Shown here piece by piece: positions 27,920 through 37,302 of a stretch of DNA of 64,000 bases. The number at the start of each line of letters is the position of its first letter. Position 1 is the stretch's first letter. The translations under genes were made by a program, and so were the position numbers. The notes below the pieces were generated by a model that did no database searches, was not told the DNA's origin, and saw nothing but the letters and a program-made list of their open reading frames with translations. The stretch comes from an uncultured Chloroflexia bacterium (GTDB taxonomy: Bacteria > Chloroflexota > Anaerolineae > CG2-30-64-16): the NCBI GenBank assembly GCA_963783655.1, contig CAWAOA010000005.1, forward strand, positions 95,331 through 159,330, written 5' to 3'.

Positions 27920-28555
27920 TTACGGGGTAGCCGTCCCGTCAGGAACGAGCACGACGTCGAAGCGTCCCTCGCTCCTGCCTTCGGGATGGTAGAGATTGCT
28001 GAAGATCGCCCGGAAACCGGGTGCTGAGATCCGCATGTGGATGTGGTCGGTGGCCGGGCCCTCGAAGCTGTATTCCCCGGCGCCACCGGTGAACACCGTC
28101 GCCCGGTAGACGTCCGGGTGCCCGCCATCGACCTCGGGCCACAGCTCGACCTTTGCGTTGGGAATTGGACCGCATCCCTGCGAGGAGCGCACGCTGCCCC
28201 GCACGATGTGTCCCTGCCCGACCGACGAACGCACCGGCATGTCAGGTTTGTAAGTCGGCGAAGGTGGGTCTCCGAACGTGGGCGCACAATCCCGAGCCCG
28301 GATTGGCGGCCCGGCAGTCACAGACGGCGGTGCCGGAGCGGGCAGGACTGTTGCGGGCGGCGTGGCAGGTACACCCAGGGGAGCTGCGGCTCGAGACGGA
28401 GTCGCCGGGGGCAGTGACGGGGCAGCGCCAACCGTTGCCGGTCTCGTTTCGGGCGGCGCCGGTGACGGCGTGCAAGATGTGACGAGGGCAACCAGGATCG
28501 CCAATGCGATTGCGTCGACCGGCGTGCGGCGAAGGAGTGCTGATCTCGAGGACAT
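27920..28555 (-). CDS. small secreted protein with a carboxypeptidase-regulatory-like / intradiol-dioxygenase-like beta-sandwich domain; last gene of the cytochrome operon
   Basis: Signal anchor plus Pro-rich linker, then GHIVRGSVRSSQGCGPIPNAKVELWPEVDGG...YRATVFTGGAGEYSFEGP. Confidence 0.45.
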   Translation of the reverse strand: MSSRSALLRRTPVDAIALAILVALVTSCTPSPAPPETRPATVGAAPSLPPATPSRAAAPLGVPATPPATVLPAPAPPSVTAGPPIRARDCAPTFGDPPSPTYKPDMPVRSSVGQGHIVRGSVRSSQGCGPIPNAKVELWPEVDGGHPDVYRATVFTGGAGEYSFEGPATDHIHMRISAPGFRAIFSNLYHPEGRSEGRFDVVLVPDGTATP

Positions 28556-28702
28556 GCAAACGCCGGCCCGGCCAGGGCCGCGTGGGGAAGCGAAACGCAC
28601 AGGCGGCAGCGCGAAGAGCATGGGAGGATGATATCGTGCCGGAATGAGCGGTTATGTCCGGCTGCTTACGCCTCGATGCGGCGATTGTGCCGCCACCCGA
28701 CG

Positions 28703-30712
28703 CTATTCCGCTCCGTCCTCGCCGCCGGTCGCCGCCCCCGTTGGCTCGTCGCCATCGCCATCGCCGTCAGGTTCCTCGCGGGATCGTGGAGGCTGCCGGC
28801 GCCGGCGGGCCACGACGACCGCGCCCGTAGCGCACAGCCCAAAGGTCAGAAGGGAGAGTATCGCCGCCAATGGGCTGAAATCCATCACGCCCACGCTCGC
28901 CGCCAGCTCCTGCACCCTGGGCCAGACGCCGGGCTGCGGCTCGTAGAGCACAGGGAGCGCCCTTTGTGCGCCCATCATGCGGATGGCGGCTCCGTCCAGG
29001 GGAACAGGCAGCGGGCGGGCGATCCCCCGGCCCGCGAAGGCGCACATCTCACCGGCCTTCACGTTGACGTCCCCGCCGCTGGCCGATCCGATGCTGGCCT
29101 CTCCGGCCACCAGATAGAGCCAGGCGCTCTCGCCGGGGAGGTATTCGATCGCAAACGCGCCACCGCTGATCGATAGTGCGGCATCCGAGGTAATCACGGT
29201 GAGGGGAGTGTCGCCGCGGCCCCACAGCCAGCCGCGTTGGAGCCTGATCTGCGGGCCGCTGCCCGTGGCCAGAGTGCCCTCGGGTACGACCAGGCTGCCG
29301 GCGCCCCAAGGGATGGTGCGGGTGCCGGGCTTCGCTTCGAGCCGCACGTCGAGTGTCGCGCCTGGCCACGCGGGGACGACGCGGCTCCAATAGCCGGGTG
29401 CGCTAACGCCCAGAGTGCGACGGCCAGACGGCAATCCATAGACGGCGAATTCGCCTGAGAGGGGCGTTGCGGGGGAGATCGTATCGCCCCCGGCGCTGAC
29501 CCAGCCGAACGGCAGAGCCGCGCCCGTGCCGGCGCGGAGCGTACCGCGCACGGTCCCGCCCGTCGCCGGCACGAGACCTAGGGTGCCCGCATCAAACTGG
29601 CGGTCGTCAAGGGCGATGCGCTGCACGGCAGGCTGCGCGTTCAGCGCAGCCGCCTGGTCCCCATCGACGGCGAGCAGATAGTCCCCCATCGGTAGGCCGT
29701 CGAGTGTGAACCGGCCCCCGGCTGCGGAGCCGGTGAATGCGCGGCCATACGGCAGCTGGACGGCGCGAACGTCGATCGTTCCCGCGGGCGGTCCACCGTC
29801 GCGGACGACCGTGCCGGAGATCTGACCCAAATGAGCCACGACGGCAAGGTTTACCGGACCGGCGGAGGCCGCGCCCGGCGGCAGATCAATCTCAACCGGC
29901 GCGGCCGCCTGGTAGCGCACGCCGTCGATCTGGATTGGCGCGACATTGATTCTGTAACGGGTCGCCGCCCGAGACAGAGCCTCCAGCCGCAGGGTGGCGC
30001 GGCCCTGGCCATCGGTCAACGCCGTGAATTTGCGTGCGCGCCAGTCATAAACGCGTGTCGTGGCGTCTACGAGCAGCCCGCTCACGGTGCGTCCCGGCTG
30101 ATCTGCAATGCCGACCTGCACGGTAACGGTCGCGGTTCCTGCCTGGTCCAGGTAGATGCGGCGCTCGGCCGAAGCTTTCCGGCCCGTCGGTTCGATTGCC
30201 GTCACGCGCACCAGGGCTTCGCCCCGCGGGATTTCCACCGGCTCGTGGCCGTGGCAGCGAAAGCAATTCCCTTCGGGCGAGCCGAGCTCCGCTGTGCCGT
30301 AGGCGTTGGTCAGCGCCCTGAAGAAGAACCGGCCGTCCGCCTCTGGCGTGCCCGTCTCGCGGCCAACGGGCTTGCCATCCTGGAGCACCTCGAACTGGAC
30401 TTCCAGTTGGGCCGGATCGAAATCACTGCCGGTGACGTGACCGACGATCGGCACGGTCGTGCGCGGACCTACCAGTCCGGTGTAATAGGTCTCGCCTTCG
30501 CCCGGCCGGTCGATGACAACCTTAATCCCGGCCGGTTGGCCGGCTGCGGGCGTGGCCGTCTGCGCAGCCACGCCGAGTGGCAACGCAGCCGCAAACAGGA
30601 GACCCGCGAGCACAAGCCCGGCGCCGGGGCGACCGCGAAAGGCGCCGAGCGCCCCGGCCTTGCGGGCCAGAAGGCGCCGGCTCAGTGTGCCGAGGTCCGG
30701 CCGCCGGTTCAC
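28703..30712 (-). CDS. large (669 aa) secreted protein with repeated CarbopepD_reg-like beta-sandwich domains, one CXXCH heme-binding motif (NCFRCHGHEP), a C-terminal TM anchor and an acidic tail
   Basis: Signal peptide ...LLFAAALPLGVAAQ; motifs GxVxDxxGxPxxGxxV repeated; C-terminus LAAILSLLTFGLCATGAVVVARRRR plus EEPDGDGDGDE. ATGA-type overlap with the upstream cytochrome gene. Confidence 0.55.
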   Translation of the reverse strand: MNRRPDLGTLSRRLLARKAGALGAFRGRPGAGLVLAGLLFAAALPLGVAAQTATPAAGQPAGIKVVIDRPGEGETYYTGLVGPRTTVPIVGHVTGSDFDPAQLEVQFEVLQDGKPVGRETGTPEADGRFFFRALTNAYGTAELGSPEGNCFRCHGHEPVEIPRGEALVRVTAIEPTGRKASAERRIYLDQAGTATVTVQVGIADQPGRTVSGLLVDATTRVYDWRARKFTALTDGQGRATLRLEALSRAATRYRINVAPIQIDGVRYQAAAPVEIDLPPGAASAGPVNLAVVAHLGQISGTVVRDGGPPAGTIDVRAVQLPYGRAFTGSAAGGRFTLDGLPMGDYLLAVDGDQAAALNAQPAVQRIALDDRQFDAGTLGLVPATGGTVRGTLRAGTGAALPFGWVSAGGDTISPATPLSGEFAVYGLPSGRRTLGVSAPGYWSRVVPAWPGATLDVRLEAKPGTRTIPWGAGSLVVPEGTLATGSGPQIRLQRGWLWGRGDTPLTVITSDAALSISGGAFAIEYLPGESAWLYLVAGEASIGSASGGDVNVKAGEMCAFAGRGIARPLPVPLDGAAIRMMGAQRALPVLYEPQPGVWPRVQELAASVGVMDFSPLAAILSLLTFGLCATGAVVVARRRRQPPRSREEPDGDGDGDEPTGAATGGEDGAE

Positions 30713-31821
30713 GGCTTCTTCACGTCTGCCGGCAATCCGAAACCGTTGCCGGCGAAGTGGCAGCGGGCACAGTCAACAGCCCGTTGCACGTTGTGTGACA
30801 CGTAGGCGGCGTTCGTCTTGCGTCCCAGCAGCTCGGTCGCGCGCCAGGAGGTCCACTGGCCCGTTTCCTTTACTCTGCCGACCTGCAGCCCCCCCGCGTC
30901 GTGACAGGCTACGCAATCGACTTTGGCGTGCGCAGCGTCGTGCCCGGCAGGGGGGCTGGCGGCCGTCTTGATCGCGGCGTGGCAGTTGGCAGCGGTGCAG
31001 CTTGCCTGTGCCGAGTGGGGGTTGTGGCAGCTCGTGCAGGTGAAGTCCTTATGCGCCGGCGTGCCCAGCTCGCGGCGGTGGCGCAGGGTTTCCGTGTCCG
31101 TATGGCACTTCTCGCACTGCTCCGTAGAGCTCTTTATGGCCGTGTACTCGCCGGTGAGCGCGTCCCTCCAGGCCAGCTCTTTCGATACGCCGCCGTCCGG
31201 AGCCGGCCGGTGGCACTGCTCGCAGGGGATGCTCTTCCAGGAATTCTCAGGAACGAGTGGGTTGCCCTTGGCCTGGCGCACCACCGGGTCGGTGGGGAAT
31301 TTGCAGGAGACGCAGTTCGGCTGCGGGTCGATCTTCGCCGAGGACTCCCAGTTGCCCGGCGAGTGGCAGCGCGCGCAGTAGGTGTTTGGCCCCTTGCCCA
31401 ATCCGTAGGTGCTGCTGTGCGGCCCGGCCTGCCACGCGATCCCCGCTGCAACCTGGGACGCGGGCAGATTTTGCGGCAGCGTTGCCGTGGGAACGGGTGC
31501 GGGCGTGGCGAGCACGGGCATGGCCCCTGCGCCGCTGCCCGAAGCCGGGGCCGTGCCAGATGCCGCTGCGGCCGGTCGGGTGGCCGCCGGCGACGCCGCG
31601 GACGGCGCGGGCGCAGCCGTTGCGGTGGCGGGAGTCACTGCGGGCGCGGTAGTCGGGACGGCCGGCGCGGCGCCCGCCTGGGCCGCGGTCGGCATTGTGG
31701 GCGCGGCAGCCGGGACGGCCGGGGTCGCGCAGGCGGCCAGGAGCAGGCAGGCGAACGCGACACCCAACACGATGCGTACCCGGGACAGAGCAGTCACCGT
31801 GATTTGGGACGTATGCGGCAT
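30709..31821 (-). CDS. multiheme c-type cytochrome lipoprotein (about 7-8 heme motifs: CARCH, CEQCH, CEKCH, CTSCH, CX4CH, CVACH, CARCH, plus CVSCK)
   Basis: Lipobox signal MPHTSQ...VAFACLLLAACA, Ala/Pro/Thr linker, then dense CXXCH motifs. Confidence 0.8.
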   Translation of the reverse strand: MPHTSQITVTALSRVRIVLGVAFACLLLAACATPAVPAAAPTMPTAAQAGAAPAVPTTAPAVTPATATAAPAPSAASPAATRPAAAASGTAPASGSGAGAMPVLATPAPVPTATLPQNLPASQVAAGIAWQAGPHSSTYGLGKGPNTYCARCHSPGNWESSAKIDPQPNCVSCKFPTDPVVRQAKGNPLVPENSWKSIPCEQCHRPAPDGGVSKELAWRDALTGEYTAIKSSTEQCEKCHTDTETLRHRRELGTPAHKDFTCTSCHNPHSAQASCTAANCHAAIKTAASPPAGHDAAHAKVDCVACHDAGGLQVGRVKETGQWTSWRATELLGRKTNAAYVSHNVQRAVDCARCHFAGNGFGLPADVKKP

Positions 31822-31850
31822 GTGGGCTGCGGGTACCGGTCGGGAGTCTT

Positions 31851-32957
31851 TCACTTTTGTGTCGCCTCTGGGGTTGGAGCGGAGTCGCGCGGAAAAACCG
31901 GGCACCATTCGAAAGTCGCGCCGCCGGCGTGGCAGCCATCGGCATCGCAACTGACGCCGGAAACGATAGCCGCTCGCACGTTGGGAATCGTGAGCGCCTG
32001 CCCAACAGAGGTCAGCCCCCCCTGCACCTCACCCCGGGGGTGATGGCAGCGGCGGCAGTCTACTGCCGTCTGGATATTGTGCGAGGGCCACGACCTGAGG
32101 GTATGGGCGAAGCGTTGGGGGATGTACTCGCCGAAGTGGCGGGAATCGGGCAGCAGATCCTGCCAGATAGGCAGCCCGCCCGCATCGTGGCATCCAGTGC
32201 AGTTTGCACTGGCATGTGACGCATGGATCTGCGCCGCGCCGCCCCGGGTCACGTCGTGGCAGTCGATGCACTTCACCGGCGTGCCGTGCGAGCCGTGGCA
32301 GCTTGCGCAATCCCAACCCTTGTGGGCCGGCGAGTGCTCCTGCTCGTTCACCACCTCGAAACCGTGCCTGCCCTCGTGGCACTTCTCGCAGAGCTCGGTC
32401 GAATTCTTCACCGGCTCGTACACGCCCGCCTTTTGGTTCCAGAACGAGATCGAAGTGCTGTAACTTTCGCCGATGGGCTGGTGGCAGACATCGCAACTGA
32501 TGTTCTTCCATTGGGTTTGCGGCACCGGCACGCCGCCCAGCAAATCGGGCCTGGGCAGGCCTGGCTCGCGTTTGCAGCTCGTGCAGTCATGCGATGCCTC
32601 GGCTGCGACCACCTGCGTCGGATCCCAGTTCTTGGGTGACTTACAGGTCGCGCAGGTGGTGTTGGCGCCCATCCCGTTGTCGTACGTGTCGGCGTGCTGG
32701 GTCTTGGCCCACGCGGCCTGCGAAGCCCGGAGTTGATCGGCAGTGGCCGGGGTGCCGGGGGCCGGAGTGGCAGCCTGCCGCGGAGCCTGGGTAACGGTCG
32801 CCCCCGCCCACATCTCGGCGCCGGCCGAGACGGCGACGGTGAGGGTCCATGCGGCCACCATCACGACTACGAGGAGATAGAGAATCCCGAGCCGCGGGTT
32901 GGGCTTGCGCCCGCCGGCGCCAGGGCCAGCGCGTCCGAGCCGGTTGAATAAGTCCAT
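31851..32957 (-). CDS. multiheme c-type cytochrome, paralog of the downstream gene (CDVCH, CEKCH, CASCH, CIDCH, CTGCH, CRRCH, CX4CH, plus CATCK and CTSCK)
   Basis: TM/signal ILYLLVVVMVAAWTLTVAVSAGA, then the motifs listed. Collinear with 30709-31821 (the ...SPKNWDP / ...SPGNWES blocks align). Confidence 0.8.
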   Translation of the reverse strand: MDLFNRLGRAGPGAGGRKPNPRLGILYLLVVVMVAAWTLTVAVSAGAEMWAGATVTQAPRQAATPAPGTPATADQLRASQAAWAKTQHADTYDNGMGANTTCATCKSPKNWDPTQVVAAEASHDCTSCKREPGLPRPDLLGGVPVPQTQWKNISCDVCHQPIGESYSTSISFWNQKAGVYEPVKNSTELCEKCHEGRHGFEVVNEQEHSPAHKGWDCASCHGSHGTPVKCIDCHDVTRGGAAQIHASHASANCTGCHDAGGLPIWQDLLPDSRHFGEYIPQRFAHTLRSWPSHNIQTAVDCRRCHHPRGEVQGGLTSVGQALTIPNVRAAIVSGVSCDADGCHAGGATFEWCPVFPRDSAPTPEATQK

Positions 32958-33315
32958 CGTGTCGGGAACACTTTCCATTGGGGGGCGGGCCGCAAGCGCG
33001 CGCAACCGCCTCAGGCAAGCACAGTCTACCACACCTCGCCTGCGCCCTGCTTCACTGAGGTGGGTGATGTTTGGGCCGCCGGAAGGGTTATTGCAGCTAC
33101 TCCTTTTGGTGGGTCTGGGGCACGCAGCATAGCCCGATTGGGCGATGCGCGGATGATCGCCGTATGCCGCGTCACAGCTTGCACCGGCCGCCGGTGATGC
33201 CAGGGCCGGCCGGCTATCATCCTCCCCAGGGTTACCGGTGAGTGACTGGAAGATTGCTGACGACACTTCCAGGATGCGAACAAGATAATTCTTCCTCGGT
33301 GGAGGATTTGGAGTG

Positions 33316-35823: not shown

Positions 35824-37302
35824 ATACCTCATAGGTTAACGGGAATCAGGGTTTGTCAAGCATCGGATTTGCCCCCCTCTTCGTCCAGGGCCAGGCTCAC
35901 CTGCGTCAGCAGCGAGGGGCGGTCAGGGGCGCGGGCACGTTTGACGATGCCCAACAGCTTAGCCTCCTCGGCGAGAAACTGGGCGGCCGGGCCCTGAAAG
36001 GTGCCGGCCTGGGTGCGCACGGCGTAGTAATACAACATGCGGGACACCATCTCCAGCGAGATGCGCTCGAGCGGCAGCCCCAATTCCTCGGCCACCTCAT
36101 CGCCCAGATCGACCAAGACGGCGTAGTAGACCCAGGTGGCCCACACCTGCAGCTGCACGCCGTTGTTACTCCCCACCCACAGATATGACAGATCCAGCAG
36201 CCGCTTGACCAGCGCAAAGGCGCTCTCGATCTGCCAGCGCCTCTGGGAGACGGCCACCACTTCCAGCACCGAGAGCTGCTGCGGGTCGAGCACGTTGGTC
36301 AGGTAGCGGCGCCAGGCGCCGTCCACGTACACCTCGACCAGCCGCAGCGGGTGCTGCGAGCGGTGGGAGCGGTACCGGCCAAGCTGGACGATCTGATCGC
36401 GCACCTGCGGCTGCTGCCTCAGGCTCTGCCGCACAGTATAGCTGGTCTGCTCCCGCAGGCGGGTGACAAACCAGCTGCCCCTCTCCGTCAGGGCATCAAA
36501 GAAGCCAAAGGAGAAGTAGCCCAGATCGAAGACCAGCAGGCTGTTAGCGGGCAGCCAGGCCAGGAGCTGGGGCTGGAAGGCCTTGTCGTTGGTGGCCGGG
36601 TCCTCGCCAAACCAGATCTGGGCCGGCAGGTGGCTGAGCACATCCACCACCACCGCCAGGTGCCCACCCAAGGGCGCTTCCGGCACCTCGCGCAGCGCCT
36701 GCAGCTTGCGGAATAAGGCTTCCAGCGTGGTGCCATCCAAGGCGTAGCAGGCGGCGAAGCGCTGCGCCAGGCCGGCCAGCCGCGGCGGCAGCGGCCGCTG
36801 GCGGGCGGCGGCGCGGGCGGGCAGGGCGGCCAGCACCGTTTCCAGCACGCCCTGGAAGAGCTGGGCAGGGAAGGTGAGAAAGCGCTCGCTCAAAGCCGGT
36901 TGGCTGACCCGGAACGGTTGCGTCCACCCCACCCGTTCCTGCGCCAGCAAGCGCTGCAACTCACACACGCCCGCCAGATGCCGCCACAGCATGGCCAGCA
37001 CCACCGAGACCATCACCGGCAGGGTGAGCAGGCGGTTGCGCAGTCCCAACTGCCGGTAGTGCGCCATTTCGCTGTAGACGGCCGGTGCCACCAAATCTTG
37101 CAGCCGTTGTTCGATGGCAGCATCGCTGGGTGCCGGGGGGTGAACGCCGCCGGGCGTGATCTGGATCTCCCGCTGCTGCCGCGAACCGGCCGCTCCGTAG
37201 CCGCGGTTTGGCCCCGATTCGCATGTCCCTATCCTACGCCCCCACCGCCGGCGCCGCAAGCCCCCCCTTGACTCCCCCCTCTGTGCTTAACCTATGAGGT
37301 AT
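35824..37302 (-). mobile_element. IS4-family insertion sequence, 1479 bp, with 16-bp terminal inverted repeats ATACCTCATAGGTTAA / TTAACCTATGAGGTAT and an 11-bp target-site duplication GCGGGTGACCC
   Basis: Exact inverted ends at 35824-35839 and 37287-37302. The flanking 11-mers at 35813-35823 and 37303-37313 are identical. It contains one intact DDE transposase ORF. Confidence 0.8.
35856..37259 (-). CDS. IS4-family DDE transposase (467 aa, apparently intact)
   Basis: DDE_Tnp_1-like regions: ...LLVFDLGYFSFGFF...YRSHRSQHPLRLVEV...RWQIESAFALVKR... Confidence 0.85.
   Translation of the reverse strand: MRRRRWGRRIGTCESGPNRGYGAAGSRQQREIQITPGGVHPPAPSDAAIEQRLQDLVAPAVYSEMAHYRQLGLRNRLLTLPVMVSVVLAMLWRHLAGVCELQRLLAQERVGWTQPFRVSQPALSERFLTFPAQLFQGVLETVLAALPARAAARQRPLPPRLAGLAQRFAACYALDGTTLEALFRKLQALREVPEAPLGGHLAVVVDVLSHLPAQIWFGEDPATNDKAFQPQLLAWLPANSLLVFDLGYFSFGFFDALTERGSWFVTRLREQTSYTVRQSLRQQPQVRDQIVQLGRYRSHRSQHPLRLVEVYVDGAWRRYLTNVLDPQQLSVLEVVAVSQRRWQIESAFALVKRLLDLSYLWVGSNNGVQLQVWATWVYYAVLVDLGDEVAEELGLPLERISLEMVSRMLYYYAVRTQAGTFQGPAAQFLAEEAKLLGIVKRARAPDRPSLLTQVSLALDEEGGKSDA

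Follow-up and report, generated by a model that had tools for sequence, protein, structure and literature searches.

The window (the whole stretch of DNA that was analysed, 64,000 nt in length) carries on its minus strand two neighbouring genes for multiheme c-type cytochromes, here called MHC-A and MHC-B, and a third gene directly downstream of them. The features of this module and of the gene that follows it are:

31851-32978, minus strand: MHC-A, 375-aa nonaheme cytochrome c with nine heme motifs (two CXXCK and seven His-type)
32640-32654, minus strand: CATCK, motif 1 of MHC-A (codons TGC GCG ACC TGT AAG)
32571-32585, minus strand: CTSCK, motif 2 of MHC-A (codons TGC ACG AGC TGC AAA)
31929-31949, minus strand: CDADGCH, ninth heme motif of MHC-A, specific to the A family (CX4CH here, CX2CH or CX4CH in orthologs)
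30709-31821, minus strand: MHC-B, 370-aa octaheme lipoprotein cytochrome c with eight motifs
31729-31740, minus strand: LAAC, lipobox of MHC-B (aa 28-31)
31363-31377, minus strand: CARCH, motif 1 of MHC-B, the His-type counterpart of the MHC-A CATCK
31300-31314, minus strand: CVSCK, motif 2 of MHC-B (codons TGC GTC TCC TGC AAA), inside the family signature PPNCVSCKF
30979-30999, minus strand: CTAANCH, motif 6 of MHC-B, a CX4CH heme motif of the cytochrome c3 kind
28703-30712, minus strand: third gene of the module, 669 aa, with a signal peptide, one heme motif, CarboxypepD_reg/Ig-like domains, and a C-terminal TM helix at approximately aa 616-636
30251-30265, minus strand: CFRCH, sole heme motif of the CarboxypepD_reg protein
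27920-28621, minus strand: 233-aa secreted protein, encoded by the following gene on this strand and containing a CarboxypepD_reg-like domain, of uncertain membership in the module

The MHC-A gene starts with the ATG at 32978, in agreement with a 375-aa database protein (P0121) that is 100% identical to it. Position 32957, which had been given as its end in the sequence-only reading of this DNA, lies 21 nt downstream of this start and corresponds to an internal Met (MDLF...). The N-terminus of MHC-A contains a hydrophobic anchor or signal at aa 28-56. MHC-B is composed of a signal peptide, a Pro/Ala/Thr-rich linker of approximately 95 aa, and a heme domain (aa 126-370), and its motifs comprise CARCH, CVSCK, and six further His-type motifs. 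Its lipobox Cys, C31, is kept in at least 90% of the B-family alignment. MHC-B motif 6 has the CX4CH form in 111 of 122 B sequences, and in a profile search against PDB sequences it was aligned with CGSSGCH of cytochrome c3. MHC-A is orthologous to the MHC_A genes of two related loci, L001 and L003 (50-51% identity), and MHC-B is orthologous to MHC_B genes at 44-56% identity. The start of the CarboxypepD_reg gene overlaps the MHC-B stop by 4 bp; this gene comes after the two cytochrome genes in almost every locus, and one protein, P0244, is a natural fusion of an MHC-B domain with the CarboxypepD_reg protein. In 13 orthologs the heme site of the CarboxypepD_reg protein reads CX2CH, and in 22 it reads CX3CH.

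Pairwise alignment indicated that MHC-A and MHC-B are paralogs with 37% identity, in which CTSCK stands opposite CVSCK and CATCK opposite CARCH. This alignment and the ORF listing bear out the claim of the sequence-only reading that CXXCK occurs at aligned positions in both proteins. Motif 2 was invariably CXXCK, both in sequences of the MHC-A type (A; 121/121) and in those of the MHC-B type (B; 122/122), and these sets of approximately 240 sequences share no more than about 45-65% identity with the window proteins. At motif 1, CXXCK was found in 121 of 121 A sequences, while B had CXXCH throughout, with Lys in 0 of 121. Judged from these alignments, the recurrence of CXXCK is far beyond chance. 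The codons for the motif Lys residues are AAG, AAA, and AAA and all motif His codons are CAC or CAT, so that a change from K to H needs two substitutions, and CXXCK is therefore not an artefact. The earlier argument against a sequencing error is strengthened by this codon difference and by the strict conservation of Lys across the A and B sets. All identifiable relatives of the two proteins were from Anaerolineae-type MAGs. Since the rare CXXCK motif never varies in approximately 240 relatives from uncultured Chloroflexi, it is the mark of an undescribed cytochrome family; literature searches pairing CXXCK with Chloroflexi taxa did not find the family described. Elsewhere CXXCK is the motif of the Lys-ligated catalytic heme in NrfA and octaheme nitrite reductases (PMC8840924, PMC12285233), and its identification as such in the sequence-only reading agrees with these papers.

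The B subfamily contains eight hemes but only seven conserved non-motif His residues, whereas the A subfamily has nine for nine hemes. Relatives in which motif 2 is deleted or degraded (in some distant relatives to CASAI, CAAAL, and similar) still have their seven other CXXCH motifs and every one of the seven non-motif His residues. Because of this retention, the seven His residues would be expected to pair with the seven His-type hemes, and heme 2 would be dispensable to the chain. We infer that heme 2 of MHC-B has no conserved distal His, and the same pattern suggests that the motif-2 heme lies off the main heme chain. A search of the family alignments for an alternative ligand of heme 2 found no conserved Met and no invariant Tyr. 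In MHC-A, given nine His for nine hemes, heme 2 could be Lys/His six-coordinate. The motif-1 Lys of MHC-A is probably on a heme that has a distal His, and this site therefore has the appearance of a ligand swap within the wire.

Comparison with NrfA and the octaheme enzymes, which the sequence-only reading had put forward as a check, gave no NrfA/ONR membership by sequence profile. PF02335 did not match the window proteins at E up to 0.1 and matched one of 76 family members (E 0.0026), and PDB NrfA sequences scored against the family profile with E of 2 or worse. When the B and A family profiles were compared with E. coli NrfA using hhalign, two weak, insignificant, and mutually inconsistent registers were obtained, one placing PNCVSCK on the heme 1 motif of NrfA (PMACWSCK) and the motif after it on NrfA heme 2, and the other placing motifs 3-4 on NrfA hemes 4-5. 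Owing to this inconsistency a residue-level mapping to NrfA, including the equation of the CARCH arginine with NrfA Arg106, was dropped. For the distal Arg/Tyr/His triad, also named in that reading, the hhalign registers conflict, and no such set is visibly conserved across the wider Lys-keeping sequences. Residues Y139, K143, and R182 of MHC-B were rejected as a defining triad, as they are conserved in close homologs but only partly in distant Lys-containing relatives.

The family has the CXXCK motif in common with NrfA, ONR, and TvNiR, enzymes in which the Lys of the motif serves as proximal ligand to a catalytic heme that is five-coordinate (PMC8840924, PMC12285233). The position of the motif differs, being motif 1 of five in NrfA, motif 4 of eight in ONR, and, for the one common to MHC-B and MHC-A, motif 2 of eight or nine. 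NrfA has five hemes, a Ca site, and a three-helix bundle with long C-terminal dimer helices, whereas MHC-A and MHC-B have eight or nine motifs, no visible Ca site, and no such helices in their models. NrfA is encoded in the context of nrfEFG or nrfI and of NrfH or NrfBCD, whereas the usual context of the MHC genes is DmsABC, with no nrfEFG or nrfI nearby. Otr of Shewanella oneidensis (PDB 1SP3) has eight hemes, the same as the motif count of MHC-B. Its Lys-ligated active-site heme is said, with reference to Mowat et al. 2004, to be heme 2 in sequence order. The profile search against PDB sequences detected no relationship between Otr and the family, and the second Lys motif of MHC-A is a further difference. 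The active-site heme of Otr is indeed Lys-ligated (PMC12285233), but that Lys comes from outside the CXXCH motif, whereas in MHC-A and MHC-B it is the in-motif residue of CXXCK.

The window proteins have 3.3-4.4 kDa of protein per heme, and the family median is approximately 4.0. Such low values are those of the 'peptide-minimized' class, typical electron carriers, and fall below the 'peptide-replete' catalytic architecture of approximately 6 kDa or more (classes per PMC7096707). Otr, which has little secondary structure for its class (PMC7096707), is soluble and periplasmic with approximately 6.1 kDa per heme, in contrast to the membrane-anchored and heme-denser MHC-A and MHC-B. In AlphaFold models of the two proteins the helices outside the signal or TM segment are 12 residues or shorter, and several beta hairpins are present. 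The sole structural neighbours of both models are NrfA, Otr, ONR, and HAO, a point in favour of the sequence-only interpretation; Foldseek searches of the models against the PDB gave noise only, as expected given the little secondary structure.

Two other groups of cytochromes resemble parts of the family. Seven members were scanned one by one with Pfam Cytochrome_C554 (PF13435), and in five of them the stretch running from the conserved N-terminal His through motif 3 exceeded the gathering cut-off of 20.8 bits, with 26-38 bits and E up to 0.01. With the threshold relaxed to E 1, 29 of 76 members in alignment A4 gave a hit, and the two window proteins had no match at E up to 0.1. Heme 2 is the open or active one in c554, MccA, and OcwA (PMC6703420). 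OcwA of Thermincola potens is a nonaheme cell-surface reductase related to NrfA and c554, acting outside the membrane of a monoderm-type bacterium, and the open-coordination heme of its N-terminal c554-like module is heme 2 (PMC6703420). The high-spin hemes of OcwA and c554 are bound by CXXCH, versus CXXCK in MHC-A and MHC-B (PMC6703420), and OcwA has a C-terminal helix bundle, unlike the family described here. The second group is the c3/c7-type carriers, whose profiles PF14537 (38.0 bits, cut-off 25) and PF14522 (27.6 bits, cut-off 24.8) both exceeded the gathering score in MHC-B; MHC-A matched PF14522 (26.6 bits) and PF09699 (26.5 bits), and by this measure the window proteins belong to the group. 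The Pfam models Cytochrom_c3_2 and Cytochrome_C7 are thus exceeded, and the peptide-to-heme ratio is similar. Desulfovibrio c3 aligned with motifs 5-7 of the family, CX4CH included (E 0.003), and beyond this stretch the profile search and phmmer found nothing significant among PDB sequences. The c3/c7 carriers have three or four bis-His hemes and no Lys motif, are soluble, and cover only part of MHC-A or MHC-B.

The gene order DmsA-DmsB-DmsC-MHC_A-MHC_B-CarbReg-DmsD-Fer4-rSAM is conserved across 39 Chloroflexota loci. DmsABC-type genes adjoin the module in at least 33 of the 39, with the MHC pair and the CarboxypepD_reg gene usually lying just downstream of the operon, and a GAF-HisKA_3/NarL-type two-component system also takes part in the synteny with the DmsA/YnfE-family reductase. 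The family as a whole is almost always genetically linked to a respiratory molybdoenzyme of the DmsABC type. No DmsABC genes were found in the 64-kb window, and the trio also stands without them in two other loci, L004 and L030. Pfam searches of the nearby window genes identified unrelated housekeeping genes and an IS4-type transposase, and the 233-aa secreted protein showed no conserved association with the module in other loci. No ORF with a WWD motif (CcsA/CcmF-type, CcsA/NrfI-like) was found in the window or in 42 related loci, nor within 10 kb of the 39 Chloroflexota loci. Known systems frequently depend on a lyase dedicated to CXXCK, and S. oneidensis matures CXXCK without one (PMC12285233).

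The explanation that we favour, with moderate confidence in it as a whole, is that MHC-A and MHC-B are paired, heme-dense cytochromes with a peripheral, open motif-2 Lys heme and a role in anaerobic respiration. MHC-A, with nine hemes and an N-terminal anchor, and MHC-B, an eight-heme lipoprotein, would sit together on the outer face of the cytoplasmic membrane and work with the monoheme Ig-like-domain membrane protein encoded directly downstream. From the motif and its invariance, the CXXCK sites are presumably hemylated, with Lys replacing His as the proximal axial ligand. The motif-2 Lys heme of both paralogs would be peripheral to the chain of bis-His hemes and, having no conserved distal His, most likely five-coordinate or water-bound and high-spin. 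Its position would correspond to the special heme 2 of the c554/MccA/Otr/OcwA scaffold, and it may serve as an electron exit or entry site between the wire and a small ligand, substrate, or partner. The motif-1 Lys, found in MHC-A only, would be a subfamily-specific swap of the proximal ligand on a chain heme that probably keeps its distal His and would then be Lys/His-coordinated. In other loci the module is usually, it appears, co-transcribed with a Tat-exported DmsABC-type molybdoenzyme, a DmsD chaperone, and a two-component system, and it is therefore most likely part of a menaquinol-fed anaerobic respiratory chain.

If the CXXCK hemes were instead six-coordinate and low-spin, with Lys/His or Lys/other ligation, they would tune potential or partner recognition in a pure electron relay with no substrate chemistry. 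A density of 3.3-4.4 kDa per heme is in the electron-transfer range (PMC7096707), the Pfam matches are confined to c3, c7, Paired_CXXCH, and NrfB-like carriers, and a relay would also fit the lack of a conserved catalytic triad, the one conserved non-motif His per heme in A, and the motif-1 K/H switch on a heme kept in all relatives. It does not fit the B subfamily, where the missing His maps to the Lys heme, nor the deletion of heme 2 with retention of the other hemes, which is odd for a chain member. Mere tuning would be expected to leave Lys less strictly conserved than it is across 240 sequences, and all CXXCK hemes characterised to date are catalytic (PMC8840924, PMC12285233), so that we regard this alternative as a serious but doubtful one. 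A catalytic role of the lysine heme is plausible. The sequence-only reading had preferred catalysis to relay for the CXXCK hemes in general; this holds as a plausible proposal for motif 2 only and is unproven, since NrfA profile, triad, and long helices are lacking, little protein surrounds each heme, and the motif-1 Lys is likely a ligand swap on a wire heme.

A catalytic role could take the form of a miniature NrfA/ONR-like oxyanion reductase, in which the motif-2 Lys heme would reduce nitrite, hydroxylamine, sulfite, or a related product of the DmsA-type enzyme, making a two-step pathway in one cluster. The CXXCK motif itself, the one weak register of PNCVSCK on PMACWSCK, and the tight synteny with the DmsA/YnfE-family reductase and the GAF-HisKA_3/NarL-type two-component system point this way, as does OcwA, an NrfA-like monoderm cytochrome that reduces nitrite and hydroxylamine (PMC6703420). 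We consider it improbable, however, because PF02335 is confined to a single one of 76 family members and absent from the window proteins, the second hhalign run gave a conflicting register, no conserved Arg/Tyr/His triad, visible Ca site, or long helices are present, there is very little polypeptide from which to form a substrate channel, and the trio occurs without DmsABC in three loci. That the CXXCK sites are not heme sites at all (a disulfide, a metal site, or a degenerate motif), or that their Lys is a sequencing or assembly artefact, is hardly credible. Both Cys residues and the Lys are invariant in approximately 240 independent assemblies, K to H takes two base changes, and the spacing and flanks are like those of the neighbouring heme motifs; the decay of motif 2 in some distant relatives would fit such a view, as would the failure to find a dedicated CXXCK lyase nearby, but S. 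oneidensis needs none (PMC12285233). A bolder version of the favoured explanation, which we think unlikely, would make MHC-A and MHC-B a membrane-anchored heterocomplex and a new minimal class of catalytic multiheme reductase, with open motif-2 Lys hemes and an unprecedented di-Lys two-heme centre in MHC-A. It would act in series with the DmsABC-type molybdoenzyme (for example by reducing its oxyanion product) or as a terminal reductase at the surface of uncultured Anaerolineae.

Until now, CXXCK hemes were associated with NrfA and the octaheme nitrite reductases; here the motif occurs in a separate, unannotated, and very heme-dense family, and twice per protein in its A subfamily. Should the Lys heme prove to be an active site, these genes would point to a hitherto unrecognised activity, respiratory or detoxifying, of a dominant environmental phylum and would offer a minimal scaffold for studies of Lys-ligated heme catalysis. 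If it is only a relay, this would be the first multiheme wire in which conserved Lys-ligated hemes serve electron transfer. In either case, annotation on the rule that CXXCK denotes a nitrite reductase would mislabel genes of the MHC-A and MHC-B types. Members of the family occur widely in uncultured Anaerolineae of groundwater, soil, sludge, and sediments.

An ORF listing of the window placed three consecutive genes at the cytochrome site, all on the minus strand; the remaining ORFs listed were overlapping reading frames of the kind usual for DNA of 65-70% GC.

31851-32978, minus strand: UP, the upstream cytochrome paralog (MHC-A type), 375 aa
30709-31821, minus strand: DN, the downstream cytochrome paralog (MHC-B type), 370 aa
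28703-30712, minus strand: CarboxypepD_reg gene (669-aa protein), its start overlapping the DN stop by 4 bp

Nine heme motifs were found in UP (CATCK, CTSCK, CDVCH, CEKCH, CASCH, CIDCH, CTGCH, CRRCH and CDADGCH) and eight in DN (CARCH, CVSCK, CEQCH, CEKCH, CTSCH, CTAANCH, CVACH and CARCH), numbered here in sequence order. Pairwise alignment of the two proteins (37% identity) set CVSCK of DN opposite CTSCK of UP, and CARCH of DN opposite CATCK of UP, so that the occurrence of CXXCK at homologous positions in both paralogs, as claimed in the sequence-only reading, was borne out as written. In the CXXCK motifs Lys is encoded by AAG, AAA and AAA, and all motif His codons are CAC or CAT; thus two substitutions are needed for an interchange of Lys and His. 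Searches with DN and UP returned 338 and 181 relatives, respectively, and the best 120 non-redundant sequences of each were analysed; these split into two orthologous groups, A (UP-type) and B (DN-type). CXXCK was present at motif 2 in 122/122 sequences of the B set, in which motif 1 was CXXCH throughout with UP itself as the sole exception, and motif 6 was CX4CH in 111/122. The A group has a ninth motif, and CXXCK was present at both motif 1 and motif 2 in 121/121 sequences; the extra Lys of UP is therefore no peculiarity of the source genome but a defining mark of subfamily A. A joint alignment of the groups showed motif 2 to be invariant in both, the two Cys and the Lys alike. The CXXCK finding is real, and the earlier argument that its conservation in diverged paralogs speaks against an artefact holds, given these counts and the two-base distance between the codons.

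Three indirect lines of evidence (His counts, distant relatives and precedent) bear on whether the Lys heme is special. By His counting, the B group has seven conserved non-motif His (H135, H248, H257, H269, H294, H298 and H343) for eight hemes. Among more distant relatives that cover motif 2, gathered by exhaustive profile search, CXXCK was kept in 57, CXXCH was found in 3, and the site was lost in approximately 12, being degraded in some (CASAI, CAAAL) and removed with a segment of about 25 residues in others. The segment was cleanly deleted, with the other hemes and distal His kept, in the related lipoprotein cytochromes P0278, P0289, P0304, P0307, P0310 and P0313 and in a gene adjoining DmsABC in L041, a complete Anaerolineales chromosome:

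9926-10915 of L041: related lipoprotein cytochrome, with no MHC-A or CarboxypepD_reg gene beside it

In six clean heme-2-less proteins the seven other CXXCH motifs were retained, as was every one of the seven non-motif His. On the simplest interpretation, these His would provide distal ligation to the seven His-hemes, and heme 2 would have no conserved distal His and be peripheral, removable without breaking the heme chain. There is precedent for such a heme: in c554, MccA and OcwA it is heme 2 of the N-terminal module that is open or active (PMC6703420), and the active-site heme of Otr is Lys-ligated (PMC12285233).

The most likely picture is a heme wire anchored in the membrane, in which heme 2 of each paralog would be peripheral, Lys-ligated and probably of open coordination, with an additional Lys-for-His swap at heme 1 of MHC-A; in most genomes this module would work with a DmsABC-type respiratory system. 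As stated, the model of a peripheral open Lys heme is modestly probable. The Lys motif had earlier been taken to suggest a catalytic, substrate-reducing heme rather than a pure relay. A real NrfA-like oxyanion reductase, within or beside the open Lys heme model, is improbable. Neither window protein matched the NrfA profile PF02335, and residue-level mapping onto NrfA was rejected because the hhalign alignments were insignificant and disagreed in register. No conserved distal His/Tyr/Arg triad was found across the wider Lys-containing set, in which good conservation is limited to the Phe that follows the Lys; a pocket of Y139, K143 and R182 was rejected as a triad, being kept in close B homologs only. 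In the A group, conserved non-motif His and hemes are equal in number, nine of each. A CcsA/NrfI/NrfE-type gene is absent from the window and the related loci, a weak point since Shewanella matures CXXCK without a dedicated lyase (PMC12285233). The polypeptide amounts to 3.3-4.4 kDa per heme, far under that of NrfA or Otr, and this places UP and DN within the 'peptide-minimized' class of electron-transfer cytochromes (PMC7096707). A pure relay, again within or beside the open Lys heme model, is possible if doubtful.

Profile matches were only to generic multiheme families (c3, c7, Paired_CXXCH and NrfB-like, with c554 in some members), and PDB sequences gave no relative beyond cytochrome c3, over motifs 5-7. 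Structural neighbours of the UP model were Otr (6.1), ONR (5.4), HAO (3.4) and c554 (2.3); no long helices were present in the UP or DN models, which independently point, weakly, to the NrfA/octaheme superfamily alone. The cytochromes are not members of the NrfA family, but fall within the broader NrfA/c554/octaheme world as a new variant. Literature searches found no published description of this Chloroflexota cytochrome module, which is taken to be undescribed, and the Lys-type heme motifs are its defining features.

UP has a single, N-terminal hydrophobic segment, DN a signal peptide with lipobox LAAC (its Cys at least 90% conserved), and the 669-aa protein a signal peptide and a C-terminal TM helix, so all three are expected to leave the cytoplasm and stay attached to the membrane's outer face. 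Between lipobox and heme domain, DN residues 32-125 (31447-31728, minus strand) form a Pro/Ala/Thr-rich low-complexity linker of about 95 aa (pLDDT <50 in the model), unusually long compared with 10-30 residues in most orthologs. The 669-aa protein, which weakly matches an anammox S-layer glycoprotein domain, has CarboxypepD_reg/Ig-like domains and one conserved heme motif, CFRCH (30251-30265, minus strand), which in its orthologs at L001-L040 is CX2CH in 13 and the unusual CX3CH in 22. In the metagenomic protein P0244 (907 aa), an MHC-B-type octaheme domain (residues 10-285) is fused to a CarboxypepD_reg monoheme protein 37% identical to that of the window over 583 aa. This fusion supports a physical association of the two proteins, although P0244 may be either a genuine Rosetta-stone fusion or the product of a frameshifted gene call.

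When one genome per species was scanned, 39 loci came up, with no cultured isolate among the hosts; these were Chloroflexota MAGs (Ardenticatenaceae, Promineifilaceae, Anaerolineales, Aggregatilineales, Ca. Flexifilum and 'Chloroflexia') apart from one bin labelled Desulfobacterales and one very weak Gemmatimonadota match. The Desulfobacterales-labelled bin holds a complete cluster (L040, CAZWEO010000054.1), reflecting either misbinning or horizontal transfer. Gene order was strikingly conserved: sensor kinase, DmsC-like protein, NarL-type regulator, DmsA-like molybdoenzyme with a Tat signal, DmsB, DmsC, MHC_A, MHC_B, CarboxypepD_reg protein, DmsD-type chaperone, polyferredoxin and radical-SAM protein, with FmdE-like and TatA genes at the end in some loci. 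By NCBIfam, the molybdoenzyme belongs to the DmsA/YnfE subfamily (E 2e-163, under the equivalog cut-off), the iron-sulfur subunit scores over the cut-off as a DmsB equivalog and the chaperone is DmsD-like. The cytochromes adjoin DmsABC-type genes in at least 33 of the 39 loci, and a few loci have MHC_A and the CarboxypepD_reg gene without MHC_B. Some loci have more than one DmsABC set (two to four); in L015, L003, L005, L006 and L029 these stand in tandem around a single cytochrome module, which suggests that one module serves several molybdoenzymes. The trio stands alone in L004, L030 and the window, in whose 64 kb tblastn found no DmsABC. Its flanks there are unrelated genes and a transposase about 3 kb upstream, which may bear on why the DmsABC genes usually found ahead of the cytochromes are missing. 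A secreted protein encoded next to the trio is not a conserved partner in the other loci.

35856-37259, minus strand: IS4-type DDE transposase ORF, 467 aa (PF01609)
27920-28621, minus strand: 233-aa secreted protein with a CarboxypepD_reg-like/dioxygenase-like beta-sandwich domain, directly downstream of the trio

In L001 (1-2495) and the equivalent stretches of approximately 20 loci, the stand-alone DmsC-like membrane protein gene has a GAF/HisKA_3 sensor kinase gene on one side and a NarL-type response regulator gene on the other, directly upstream of the DmsABC-cytochrome cluster. Also conserved, on the downstream side (L001 11647-14872 and equivalents), are the polyferredoxin, the radical-SAM protein, which weakly resembles HxsC/MoaA, and a zinc-finger protein of FmdE-like type, a set that might have a role in cofactor or protein maturation.
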